Source of the DNA: Escherichia coli | Lineage (GTDB): Bacteria > Pseudomonadota > Gammaproteobacteria > Enterobacterales > Enterobacteriaceae | Assembly (NCBI RefSeq): GCF_045037415.1 | Contig: NZ_CP173438.1 | DNA: 64,000 nucleotides | Direction: 5' to 3' (one strand) | Part shown: piece by piece, positions 9,722 through 12,494 of the stretch | Numbering within the stretch: the first letter of the stretch is position 1 | Layout: each line of letters begins with the position of its first letter | Made by a program: the position numbers and the translations under genes | Notes under the pieces: model-generated | Database searches by the model: none | Seen by the model: the letters and a program-made list of their open reading frames with translations, nothing else | What the model was told of the DNA's origin: nothing

Positions 9722-11121
9722 ACACTCGCCAGCTACTGAGCGTCGGTATCGATATCGGCACCACCACCACCCAGGTGATCTTCTCCCACCTGGAGCTGGT
9801 TAACCGTGCGGCGGTGTCGCAGGTGCCGCGCTACGAATTCATCAAACGCGAAATTAGCTGGCAAAGCCCGGTGTTCTTTACCCCTGTCGATAAACAGGGT
9901 GGTTTAAAAGAAGCGGAACTGAAAACCTTAATCCTCGAGCAATATCAGGCTGCGGGCATTGCGCCGGAAAGCGTTGATTCTGGTGCCATCATCATCACCG
10001 GTGAAAGCGCGAAAACCCGCAACGCTCGCCCGGCGGTGATGGCGCTCTCTCGGTCGCTGGGCGATTTTGTCGTCGCCAGCGCCGGGCCGCATCTCGAATC
10101 CGTGATCGCCGGTCACGGTGCCGGGGCGCAAACCCTTTCTGAACAACGGCTGTGTCGGGTACTGAATATCGACATCGGCGGTGGCACCGCGAACTACGCC
10201 CTGTTCGATGCCGGAAAAATCAGCGGCACTGCCTGCCTCAACGTCGGCGGTCGCCTGCTGGAAACCGACAGCCAGGGGCGCGTGGTTTACGCTCATAAAC
10301 CGGGGCAGATGATTGTGGATGAGTGCTTCGGCCCAGGCACTGACGCCCGTTCGCTGACCGGCGCGCAATTGGCGCAGGTTACCCGCCGGATGGCGGAACT
10401 GATTGTCGAAGTGATTGACGGAACGCTCTCGCCGCTCGCGCAGGCATTGATGCAAACCGGTTTGCTGCCCGCAGGTGTTACGCCCGAAATCATTACGCTT
10501 TCTGGCGGGGTAGGCGAATGTTATCGCCACCAGCCCGCCGACCCGTTCTGTTTTGCCGATATCGGCCCGCTTCTGGCAACGGCGCTGCATGACCATCCGC
10601 GTCTGCGTGAGATGAACGTGCAGTTTCCGGCGCAAACCGTGCGCGCCACGGTGATTGGCGCGGGTGCACATACCCTTTCGCTCTCTGGCAGCACAATATG
10701 GCTGGAGGGCGTACAACTGCCGCTGCGCAATTTGCCGGTGGCGATCCCGATTGATGAAACGGATCTGGTCAGTGCCTGGCAACAGGCGCTGATTCAACTG
10801 GATCTTTGCCCCAAAACTGACGCGTACGTGCTGGCGCTTCCCGCCTCGCTGCCTGTGCGTTACGCCGCGGTACTGACGGTCATCAACGCGCTGGTCGATT
10901 TCGTCGCGCGTTTTCCGAATCCGCATCCCCTGCTGGTGGTGGCCGGGCAGGACTTTGGTAAAGCTCTGGGCATGTTGTTGCGCCCACAGCTACAACAACT
11001 CCCGTTGGCAGTCATTGACGAAGTGATTGTCCGCGCGGGGGACTATATCGACATTGGTACGCCTCTTTTTGGCGGATCGGTTGTGCCGGTGACGGTGAAA
11101 TCACTCGCATTTCCTTCCTGA
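9718..11121 (+). CDS. eutA: EutA, ethanolamine ammonia-lyase reactivating factor
   Basis: 467 aa; overlaps eutH stop; synteny. Confidence 0.9.
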   Translation: MNTRQLLSVGIDIGTTTTQVIFSHLELVNRAAVSQVPRYEFIKREISWQSPVFFTPVDKQGGLKEAELKTLILEQYQAAGIAPESVDSGAIIITGESAKTRNARPAVMALSRSLGDFVVASAGPHLESVIAGHGAGAQTLSEQRLCRVLNIDIGGGTANYALFDAGKISGTACLNVGGRLLETDSQGRVVYAHKPGQMIVDECFGPGTDARSLTGAQLAQVTRRMAELIVEVIDGTLSPLAQALMQTGLLPAGVTPEIITLSGGVGECYRHQPADPFCFADIGPLLATALHDHPRLREMNVQFPAQTVRATVIGAGAHTLSLSGSTIWLEGVQLPLRNLPVAIPIDETDLVSAWQQALIQLDLCPKTDAYVLALPASLPVRYAAVLTVINALVDFVARFPNPHPLLVVAGQDFGKALGMLLRPQLQQLPLAVIDEVIVRAGDYIDIGTPLFGGSVVPVTVKSLAFPS

Positions 11122-11132
11122 GGGAACGACTT

Positions 11133-12494
11133 ATGAAACTAAAGACCACATTGTTCGGCAATGTATATCAGTTTAAGGATGTAAAAGAGGTGCTGGCTAA
11201 AGCCAACGAACTGCGTTCGGGGGATGTGCTGGCGGGCGTTGCTGCGGCAAGCTCACAGGAGCGCGTGGCGGCAAAGCAGGTGTTGTCGGAAATGACTGTA
11301 GCGGACATCCGCAATAATCCGGTGATTGCCTATGAAGATGACTGCGTGACGCGGCTGATTCAGGACGACGTTAACGAAACGGCCTACAACCAGATTAAAA
11401 ACTGGAGCATCAGCGAACTGCGTGAGTATGTGCTGAGCGATGAAACCAGCGTGGATGACATTGCCTTTACCCGCAAAGGGCTGACCTCGGAAGTGGTGGC
11501 GGCGGTAGCGAAGATTTGCTCCAACGCGGACCTGATCTACGGCGCGAAGAAAATGCCGGTGATCAAAAAGGCCAATACCACCATCGGTATTCCGGGCACC
11601 TTCAGCGCCCGCTTGCAGCCGAACGATACCCGTGACGACGTGCAAAGTATCGCCGCGCAAATCTACGAAGGGCTTTCCTTCGGGGTGGGCGATGCGGTGA
11701 TCGGCGTTAACCCGGTGACTGACGACGTGGAAAACTTAAGCCGCGTGTTGGATACCATCTATGGCGTGATCGACAAATTCAACATCCCAACTCAGGGCTG
11801 CATACTGGCGCACGTCACTACCCAAATCGAAGCGATTCGTCGCGGCGCACCAGGCGGGCTGATTTTCCAGAGTATCTGCGGCAGCGAAAAAGGGCTGAAA
11901 GAGTTTGGCGTAGAGCTGGCGATGCTCGATGAAGCACGCGCAGTGGGCGCGGAGTTCAACCGTATCGCCGGGGAAAACTGCCTCTACTTCGAAACCGGAC
12001 AAGGTTCGGCGCTGTCTGCTGGCGCGAACTTCGGCGCAGACCAGGTGACGATGGAAGCGCGTAACTATGGGCTGGCGCGTCATTACGATCCGTTTATCGT
12101 CAACACTGTGGTCGGCTTTATTGGGCCGGAGTATCTCTACAACGACCGCCAGATTATCCGCGCAGGCTTAGAAGATCACTTTATGGGCAAACTGAGCGGC
12201 ATCTCTATGGGCTGTGACTGCTGCTACACCAACCACGCTGACGCTGACCAGAACCTCAACGAAAACCTGATGATCCTGCTCGCCACCGCAGGCTGCAACT
12301 ACATCATGGGGATGCCGCTGGGCGATGACATCATGCTCAACTATCAGACCACCGCATTCCACGACACTGCCACTGTGCGTCAGTTACTGAATCTGCGCCC
12401 GTCACCGGAGTTTGAACGCTGGCTGGAAAGCATGGGCATTATGGCAAACGGTCGCCTGACCAAACGGGCGGGCGATCCGTCACTGTTCTTCTGA
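11133..12494 (+). CDS. eutB: EutB, ethanolamine ammonia-lyase large subunit
   Basis: 453 aa; directly follows eutA with an 11-bp gap. Confidence 0.9.
   Translation: MKLKTTLFGNVYQFKDVKEVLAKANELRSGDVLAGVAAASSQERVAAKQVLSEMTVADIRNNPVIAYEDDCVTRLIQDDVNETAYNQIKNWSISELREYVLSDETSVDDIAFTRKGLTSEVVAAVAKICSNADLIYGAKKMPVIKKANTTIGIPGTFSARLQPNDTRDDVQSIAAQIYEGLSFGVGDAVIGVNPVTDDVENLSRVLDTIYGVIDKFNIPTQGCILAHVTTQIEAIRRGAPGGLIFQSICGSEKGLKEFGVELAMLDEARAVGAEFNRIAGENCLYFETGQGSALSAGANFGADQVTMEARNYGLARHYDPFIVNTVVGFIGPEYLYNDRQIIRAGLEDHFMGKLSGISMGCDCCYTNHADADQNLNENLMILLATAGCNYIMGMPLGDDIMLNYQTTAFHDTATVRQLLNLRPSPEFERWLESMGIMANGRLTKRAGDPSLFF

Follow-up and report, generated by a model that had tools for sequence, protein, structure and literature searches.

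A probable unoccupied CPZ-55/intZ-family attachment site at the eutA-eutB junction of an ST131-type Escherichia coli, within a conserved 196-nt island

In strains with an intact eut operon, a single transcript that is inducible by ethanolamine and AdoCbl and activated by EutR originates at a promoter upstream of eutS (PMC7617246). The intact arrangement is the functional, ethanolamine- and B12-inducible form of the operon: intact-operon Nissle and Salmonella use ethanolamine; in strain BW25113 an insertion abolishes eutB induction and microcompartments (PMC7617246). K-12 MG1655 carries, exactly between eutB (b2441) and eutA (b2451) as annotated, the cryptic prophage CPZ-55, a 6,790-bp element (2558691..2565480) extending from intZ (b2442) to yffS (b2450). 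The eutA/eutB site has been called a "prophage insertion hot spot" and CPZ-55 is regarded as characteristic of K-12 (PMC6652756); the 8-bp target duplication has been published as TCAGGAAG, and 8% of 638 strains have been reported to bear an insertion (PMC6379469).

The stretch of DNA analysed here (the window) consists of 64,000 nucleotides of E. coli contig NZ_CP173438.1 (assembly GCF_045037415.1). A complete and uninterrupted eut operon occupies 797..15682 of its plus strand: the 17 genes lie on one strand in the canonical order eutS-P-Q-T-D(pta)-M-N-E-J-G-H-A-B-C-L-K-R, all are intact, and their lengths are those of MG1655. The PGAP annotation of strain 81009, which is 100% identical in sequence, has the same eutA and eutB coding sequences and the same 17 eut genes, with eutS starting at 797 and eutR ending at 15682. 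Every member of the enterobacterial operon eutSPQTDMNEJGHABCLKR is present, eutA and eutB are adjacent, and nothing foreign separates them; the contention of a first-pass annotation of this DNA, that the 17 eut genes form one contiguous operon, is borne out by the open reading frames and by the annotation of the identical sequence. The window thereby resembles the intact operons of S. enterica (Kofoid et al. 1999, via PMC7617246), uropathogenic E. coli (UPEC), Nissle 1917 and EHEC, which are likewise contiguous from eutS to eutR. The resemblance to the intact S. enterica and E. coli operons extends to the DNA sequence: the 11-nt spacer between eutA and eutB and the ~196 nt around it are almost identical; there is no notable difference, the window having the E. 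coli ST131-type allele.

The eutA gene (9718..11121, plus strand; 467 aa), encoding the ethanolamine ammonia-lyase reactivase, whose homologues contain PF06277, ends with a TGA stop at 11119-11121; eutB (11133..12494, plus strand; 453 aa), encoding the large subunit of ethanolamine ammonia-lyase, begins with its start codon at 11133-11135. The spacer between them (gggaacgactt, 11122..11132, plus strand) is exactly 11 nt long, too short for a gene, an integrase or a remnant of a phage; since this is an observation of gene adjacency, not a statistical pattern, chance is not at issue. The junction from 11110 to 11135 reads tttccttccTGAgggaacgacttATG. The first-pass annotation had placed the eutA stop and the eutB start 11 bp apart at 11119-11135, a range that takes in the whole of both codons and nothing beyond them, and had declared CPZ-55 missing between the two genes; both statements hold, and of the integrase or phage remnants whose detection it had named as a refutation there are none, the spacer leaving them no room.

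Overlapping the eutA stop, at 11114..11121 (plus strand), is a single copy of CTTCCTGA, the 8-bp attB core. This sequence is the direct repeat found at both ends of CPZ-55 in MG1655, and it also stands at both ends of a 13-kb intZ island in strain BMH-17-0027. That MG1655 has its prophage at this very site, as the first-pass annotation had stated, is what the MG1655 annotation says, and the two checks that it had proposed give a consistent picture: alignment to MG1655 yields two BLAST segments that break exactly at 11121 and leave the whole prophage interval unmatched, and the residual att site is present as the one core copy at 11114-11121. An intZ-like tyrosine integrase gene beside eutB is absent from the window (only 11 nt lie between the genes, and the BLAST comparison with MG1655 agrees), as is a bracketing pair of direct copies of the core; the single core sits in the same context of eutA stop and eutB spacer as do the flanks of integrated elements. 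Positions 11119-11135 are thus very probably an unoccupied attB of the CPZ-55/intZ family in the intact, ancestral 17-gene operon of a non-K-12, ST131 (O25b:H4)-type E. coli; nothing was found against reading the junction as an empty attB in an intact operon.

The eut locus of MG1655 (b2437-b2462) has the same 17 genes, order, gene lengths, junction flanks and 8-bp core as the window but differs from it in harboring, between two copies of the core, 6,790 bp of DNA (intZ to yffS) whose orientation is antisense to eut. The attB core present in the window is also that of other intZ-type islands and remnants (Dadswell et al. 2019, U71; BMH-17-0027, AW1.7, 102651). In those genomes the site is occupied, be it by the 13-kb island, by IS5 with a truncated integrase or by an IS903B-scrambled region, and in the window it is empty. 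The tyrosine integrase of this family recombines at the core, within which the eutA stop is contained; duplication of the core on integration lets eutA retain its stop and eutB its spacer and ribosome-binding site, and puts 6.8-13 kb of oppositely oriented DNA between the two genes. Integrase targets in the 3' ends of tRNA and tmRNA genes, and the icd site of element e14, also have their core at the very 3' terminus of the gene, whose end is rebuilt by the second copy of the core. The eutA attB is like these sites in the placement of its core and in lying in sequence that is invariant across genera; it is unlike them in being a protein-gene junction within an operon, at which an insertion would part co-transcribed genes instead of lying harmlessly downstream of a monocistronic gene.

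With a single core, an 11-nt spacer and no foreign DNA in the window, eutS to eutR could, on the published Salmonella/E. coli operon model, be transcribed as a single unit from the promoter upstream of eutS. Translation of eutB would start 11 nt past the end of eutA, from GAGGG at 11120-11124, which sequence and spacing mark as a putative Shine-Dalgarno-like element overlapping the eutA stop; the overlap suggests translational coupling of eutA and eutB. Minimum-free-energy folds contain a weak predicted hairpin (UUUCCUU-CCU-GAGGGAA, 11110..11126, plus strand) that would pair this Shine-Dalgarno sequence with the last eutA codons and hold the attB core in and around its loop; its folding energy (-6.2 kcal/mol, z -0.87) lends it no statistical support.

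What does the empty junction say about the strain? Since the window matches ST131-type clinical strains at 100% identity and MG1655 at only ~96.5% (96.3-96.7% by BLAST, the flanks differing by 3.3-3.7% where a K-12 lineage would be nearly identical), its source is not K-12; murR and yfeW, which MG1655 has, are missing from the window. The first-pass annotation had offered "non-K-12 or prophage-cured", and the choice resolves to non-K-12. The junction itself is barely diagnostic: eutA and eutB are contiguous in 4,964 of 5,426 complete E. coli genomes (91.5%) and also in at least one K-12 strain, GM4792. Of the 213 genomes with full CPZ-55, 212 reach 99% identity or better, and the CPZ-55 examples that were listed are all K-12-type or laboratory strains; some 204 further genomes have intZ-only or partial matches at the same site (other islands or remnants). 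The empty junction is the normal and common state in E. coli, and is already documented as such through the published hot spot and 8-bp duplication.

Beyond E. coli, the 11-nt spacer is kept in all 40 sequences examined, from at least eight genera: 34 species representatives (Citrobacter, Klebsiella, Salmonella, Yokenella, Pluralibacter, Intestinirhabdus, Pseudocitrobacter and other Escherichia), four metagenomic relatives of greater divergence, a contig of Salmonella Kentucky and one sequence from K. pneumoniae. Because it is retained in all 40, the uninterrupted operon is taken to be ancestral, as the first-pass annotation had proposed; the K-12 prophage, moreover, is bracketed by an 8-bp duplication of what is single-copy elsewhere. 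Counted by species loci (the representatives include L017, a "Citrobacter" metagenome-assembled genome that is 98-100% E. coli-like), 35 of 35 share the identical spacer and 34 of 35 the entire 26-nt junction string, and all 35 representatives are unoccupied. The spacer persists in S. enterica and in relatives with 77-80% EutA identity.

The attB target sits in sequence that is invariant across genera. An alignment of 36 sequences delimits a nearly invariant, sharply bounded island of 196 nt (11038..11233, plus strand), which takes in the final 28 codons of eutA, runs through the spacer and extends ~34 codons into eutB. The island has attB near its middle and is also found in S. enterica. Of the 58 codons inside it 13 vary synonymously, against 528 of 680 outside (Fisher p=3.5e-17). 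In the covered part of the operon the island contains the most conserved 60-nt window; the longest segment at a smoothed identity of at least 0.95 measures 205 nt there and no more than 76 nt anywhere else. Retrieval of the species set relied on a degenerate pattern for eutB codons 1-16, which forces amino-acid conservation at 11133-11179 and leaves the wobble positions and the region upstream of the ATG free. An apparent loss of homology after +100 in two sequences (L025 and L037) proved to be an artefact of ungapped comparison; with indels permitted, both align over the whole length. Among E. coli records, identity of at least 99% is reached by 5079 of 5423 for the island, 5060 of 5412 for its left flank and 723 of 5375 for its right flank. 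Site 11198, a saturated third-codon position, occurs in all four states and follows the phylogeny beside invariant neighbours; because it does so, the conservation is attributed to long-term purifying selection, not to recent transfer. At synonymous sites, then, the comparison across genera demonstrates strong purifying selection on the island. Among the most divergent relatives conservation shrinks to a core at ~11099-11140, the eutB initiation region, and the island is most likely an extended region of translation initiation and coupling for eutB that acts on the mRNA; incidentally, it would supply integrases with an invariant landing site. That plain explanation may be incomplete, the 196 nt being about three times as long as the conserved stretches at the other eut gene starts. 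Nothing relevant on conservation of the island, synonymous constraint or an internal promoter at eutA/eutB was found in the literature searched.

Searches for something more specific within the island returned little. An Rfam 15 scan of 10700-11600 at E<=10 gave only two chance-level matches, with E 5.8 and 8.5, neither of them in the island. The predicted folding of the island is no more stable than that of shuffled sequence (z +0.12 for the plus strand and -1.28 for the minus strand), no z below -1.3 came from either strand or from sub-windows, and the structures proposed by RNAalifold shift with the window chosen. A scan for sigma-70 promoters found no sites, and the minus strand has two terminator-like hairpins, about the chance expectation. 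A long-range helix between 11062-69 and 11183-90, the only 8-nt inverted repeat, was discarded as chance-level and uncompensated in L045 and L046. Four CsrA-type GGA motifs were noted by eye; two of these come from KDV and GDV codons, one of which is lost in divergent relatives, and the motifs were not considered compelling.

Mobile elements figure in two other readings of the locus. The junction could have been "cured", the lineage having once carried CPZ-55 or a related island and lost it by precise excision: site-specific excision leaves no scar, so the residual att site fits "never occupied" and "precisely excised" equally, and K-12 GM4792, which lacks the prophage and has flanks 100% and 99.8% identical to those of MG1655, has the very junction string of the window, as precise excision would produce. 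The site is, moreover, a recurrent target at which several different islands and remnants are found. Nevertheless, the emptiness of more than nine-tenths of E. coli genomes, of every outgroup examined and of all of the many ST131-type genomes that are 100% identical to the window, with no sign of past occupancy, makes "never occupied" the more parsimonious account and past occupancy very unlikely. The other reading concerns the island: its sharp edges and its rough centring on the integration core might mean that mobile elements with a long eutA-eutB attP repeatedly overwrite the host sequence, without any host function. However, the attP regions of CPZ-55 and of the BMH-17-0027 island have only the 8-bp core in common with the host, plus a weak gapped similarity (19/23), and no genuine phage or plasmid carries the island segment: the single "phage" match is an unverified Salmonella chromosomal contig, and the "plasmid" matches are Mb-scale, chromosome-sized records or fall within annotated eutA-eutB genes. 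The phylogenetic behaviour of site 11198 likewise indicates vertical descent with selection, and all 35 species representatives are unoccupied. Homogenization by mobile elements was rejected on the phage and plasmid matches and the att comparisons, and must be judged extremely improbable.

Could the island instead be coding twice, through an overlapping reading frame or a programmed frameshift that carries ribosomes out of the eutA frame into that of eutB? Ahead of its ATG, eutB has 38 codons of open frame, and there is a U5 run at 11065-11069, but an open frame of that length is expected by chance ~16% of the time, the run is in our reading not a canonical X XXY YYZ slippery site, and no alternative frame is open across the island on either strand. 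The EutA-EutB "fusion" proteins in the databases (P0092 and P0094) join at VLA/VLA repeats, which points to deletion and not to frameshifting, and dual coding would leave the conservation inside eutB unexplained; its likelihood is close to negligible. More deserving of consideration, though still doubtful, is a discrete and undescribed cis-acting element over and above the extended initiation region. Such an element might act in the mRNA through structure or bound protein, set eutBC stoichiometry as a processing site, be the target or source of a small RNA, or serve at the DNA level as a binding platform. The unusual length (205 nt against at most 76 nt at other conserved stretches of the operon), sharp boundaries and extreme suppression of synonymous change would all suit it, the variable positions 11157, 11198 and 11201 fall in the loops of small predicted hairpins, and the island is undescribed in the literature searched. 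Against it are the failure to match Rfam even at E<=10, the thermodynamically unexceptional folding of both strands, the instability of the RNAalifold predictions, the chance level of the inverted repeat, the lack of a sigma-70 consensus, and the decay of most of the island to ordinary synonymous variation in the more divergent relatives. Tentatively, one can imagine an undescribed cis-acting element of ~200 nt, with the junction at its centre, that lies within two coding sequences and is conserved at synonymous sites in Escherichia, Salmonella, Citrobacter, Klebsiella and related genera. It might control synthesis of EutB (perhaps EutBC relative to EutA) or the processing of eut mRNA, and the junction would then be something other than a plain spacer that phages chance upon.

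An intact operon in a non-K-12 source is the outcome of a routine comparison, is in the literature, and as stated carries little weight; it means that the eut operon of this strain is normal and potentially functional, a point of relevance to the gut and urinary-tract fitness of ST131-type E. coli. If the cis-acting island were real, a well-studied microcompartment operon would prove to be controlled at a further, new level. Insertions of the CPZ-55 type would in that case split a working unit in two and so go some way towards explaining the failure of K-12 to induce eutB, and the invariance of the element would provide a reason for the choice of this integration site and for its being a hot spot of integration across genera.

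The eutA stop codon and the eutB start codon are exactly 11 nt apart (11122-11132) in the window, which reads tttccttccTGAgggaacgacttATG at 11110-11135; the ORF list places eutA at 9718-11121 (467 aa) and eutB at 11133-12494 (453 aa). This stop-to-start interval is the one singled out in the first-pass annotation, whose further statement that all 17 eut genes are contiguous is borne out by one of the many complete clinical E. coli genomes that are 100% identical to window 1-25000: in strain 81009, PGAP annotates maeB, then an unbroken eut run (797-15682) in the order eutS, P, Q, T, pta(eutD), M, N, E, J, G, H, A, B, C, L, K, R, then hemF and amiA. 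The eut gene lengths are those of MG1655. A Shine-Dalgarno-like GAGGG of eutB (11120-11124) overlaps the eutA UGA, and eutB initiation is probably coupled to eutA termination. Elsewhere in the operon, the eutG-eutH intergenic region (8280-8464) holds 1.9 tandem copies (97% match) of a 100-bp GC-rich REP-like unit that is also found in MG1655; the corresponding gap in strain AW1.7 is about 100 bp shorter, consistent with one copy.

The MG1655 record places 'cryptic prophage CPZ-55' at 2558691..2565480 (6,790 bp, intZ b2442 to yffS b2450), all of its genes antisense to eut, exactly between eutB (b2441) and eutA (b2451), where the first-pass annotation had located it. Read in the window orientation, and with slashes marking the boundaries, MG1655 has ...catttcCTTCCTGA / atgcggtattc...(prophage)...atcgattCTTCCTGA / gggaacgacttATG: the prophage lies between two direct copies of an 8-bp sequence that includes the eutA stop codon, and the window has a single copy of it, at 11114-11121. 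When the window is compared with the MG1655 locus by BLAST, two segments result that break exactly at 11121 (their 23-nt overlap reflects only weak, gapped 19/23 similarity beyond the core). The integration core thus overlaps the eutA stop, and where the site is occupied, duplication of the core leaves both that stop and the spacer before eutB intact. The published 8-bp target duplication, 5'-TCAGGAAG-3' (PMC6379469), matches this repeat; the eutA-eutB interval has also been described as a 'prophage insertion hot spot', with CPZ-55 characteristic of K-12 (PMC6652756). Since the same 8 bp flank both CPZ-55 and a different 13-kb intZ-type island in strain BMH-17-0027, and occur once in the window, the window junction is an empty attB of the CPZ-55/intZ-type element family. 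Repeated TGTATCCGG / CCGGATAC motifs, noted by eye only, lie at both ends of CPZ-55 (MG1655 locus L001, 6760-6870 and 13380-13470) and of the BMH-17-0027 island (L041, 1666-1740 and 14480-14560); they may be arm-type integrase binding sites.

Empty sites predominate. With a 1,021-bp query across eutA-eutB, 4,964 of the 5,426 complete E. coli genomes show an unbroken junction (4,964 again with a 196-nt query) and about 459 a split one. Full CPZ-55 (at least 80% coverage) is present in 213 genomes, in 212 of them at 99% identity or more, and every carrier among the matches listed is a K-12-type or laboratory strain. Some 204 further genomes match, at 80-90% identity, the integrase alone or parts of CPZ-55, a sign that different elements occupy this position. 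Three occupants illustrate the range: the BMH-17-0027 island (L041 1666-14657), with HNH endonuclease and HTH protein genes, at the same attB; an IS5 and truncated integrase remnant in AW1.7 (L004 18052-20032), with eutA 12 nt shorter; and, in strain 102651 (L040 20359-32346), a region scrambled by IS903B/IS3 that carries genes resembling gadC and murI, with eutB split.

The absence of CPZ-55 is neither rare nor strictly "non-K-12", because K-12 GM4792 (NZ_CP011342.2; locus L047, 1960-2030) lacks the prophage and has a scarless junction identical to that of the window, between eutA and eutB flanks of K-12 type (100% and 99.8% identical to MG1655). A clean junction alone fits both a site never occupied and one precisely excised. 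For this window it is the flanking identity that decides between the two sources, non-K-12 or cured, offered in the first-pass annotation: the window flanks are 96.3-96.7% identical to MG1655, and 100% identity is reached with a set of genomes, one of them labelled O25b:H4-ST131, so that the source resolves to non-K-12. Other loci also vary. The lysV-val tRNA cluster (44998-45275) has tRNA-Lys and just two copies of tRNA-Val(UAC), against three in strain 81009, which is nearly identical otherwise; all that follows is offset by 120 bp, which looks like a copy-number change through recombination among the tandem tRNA genes. Over 40000-64000, the best ST131-type matches align at nearly the same length (23,996-23,997 of 24,001 nt), suggesting that they share the two-copy form. 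Two intervals, 20167-20343 and 22669-22947, are reduced relative to MG1655 and AW1.7, in the window as in strain 81009: murR is absent between murQ and ucpA, and yfeW/pbp4B, between yfeX and murP, is almost wholly missing, leaving an 87-bp pseudogene fragment (20255-20341).

Outgroup adjacency, together with the duplicated target in K-12, supports the uninterrupted state as ancestral. With one genome scanned per species, a wobble-degenerate pattern for EutB residues 1-16 gave 35 loci (Citrobacter spp., Klebsiella spp., Salmonella arizonae, Yokenella, Pluralibacter, Intestinirhabdus, Pseudocitrobacter and several Escherichia species), and every one of the 35 has the EutA C-terminus directly before eutB, with an 11-nt spacer. 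The arrangement recurs in a Salmonella Kentucky contig and in four metagenomic relatives with EutA identity of only 77-80%. (Two records call for comment: OR850921.1, 'Salmonella phage S.Kent 1-2-1', a 4.9-kb phage-collection entry flagged UNVERIFIED_ORG, was rejected as phage DNA, being a Salmonella chromosomal eutA-eutB fragment; and a locus labelled as a Citrobacter MAG, L017, matches E. coli at 98-100% identity in this region, suggesting mis-binning.)

In the uninserted operon, eutS to eutR would be readable as one transcript from an ethanolamine- and B12-dependent promoter upstream of eutS, the single-promoter model recapped in PMC7617246. Published experiments fit this one-transcript, coupled-junction reading: BW25113, which carries CPZ-55, induces eutS and eutR, not eutB, and forms no microcompartments, while Nissle 1917 and Salmonella, with intact operons, do form them (PMC7617246).

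The junction lies in a 196-nt island (11038-11233), made up of the 3' end of eutA, the spacer and the 5' end of eutB, which hardly varies among at least 8 genera of enterobacteria. In 100-nt blocks, identity to the window is 96-100% for the two that flank the eutB ATG, whatever the genus, and 70-90% elsewhere; the edges, in a 36-sequence alignment, are sharp at about 11038 and 11233. Among 29 non-Escherichia loci, mean identity reaches 0.994-0.998 for windows between 11041 and 11160, the top values within the covered part of the operon. At a smoothed identity of at least 0.95, the longest run spans 205 nt (11032-11236); no other exceeds 76 nt, and those that come next in length lie near the start of eutM and the eutB/eutC junction. 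The retrieval pattern fixes amino acids only, at 11133-11179, and leaves everything upstream of the ATG unconstrained. Counting only codons with an invariant amino acid, synonymous variation affects 13/58 in the island versus 528/680 across the remainder of the two genes, eutA and eutB (Fisher p=3.5e-17). At third-position site 11198 each of the four bases occurs, distributed along taxonomic lines, next to invariant neighbours, which indicates long-term purifying selection rather than recent transfer; no mobile element carrying the island was found.

Why should so long a segment be held constant? It is best read as an extended initiation/coupling region for eutB: the invariant core shrinks, in the most distant of the relatives, to about 11099-11140 (the final seven codons of eutA, the spacer and ATG AAA), as expected of a translation-initiation region, with the eutA-side extension kept in 2 of 4. 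A distinct, undescribed cis-element is a less likely alternative. In the scans made, the island has no Rfam match, no sigma-70 consensus and no alternative reading frame spanning it; on neither strand is its predicted fold more stable than that of shuffled sequence, the consensus structure is not a stable one, and the literature searched makes no mention of the island. The attP, judged from the CPZ-55 and BMH-17-0027 ends, shares just the 8-bp core with the host. The eutB-side GTGCTGGC repeat (11226-11233) coincides with the right edge of the island; in two metagenomic EutA-EutB fusion ORFs (P0092 and P0094, 792 aa), EutA '...DAYVLA' runs into EutB 'VLAGVAAAS...', which looks like deletion or misassembly between two GTGCTGGC repeats.

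The uninterrupted junction is thus confirmed and its first interpretation supported, and the empty eutA-eutB site is the default, ancestral and already published state. The conserved island is an as yet unexplained lead beside this known feature, and its invariance across genera plausibly accounts for the use of this spot by integrases.
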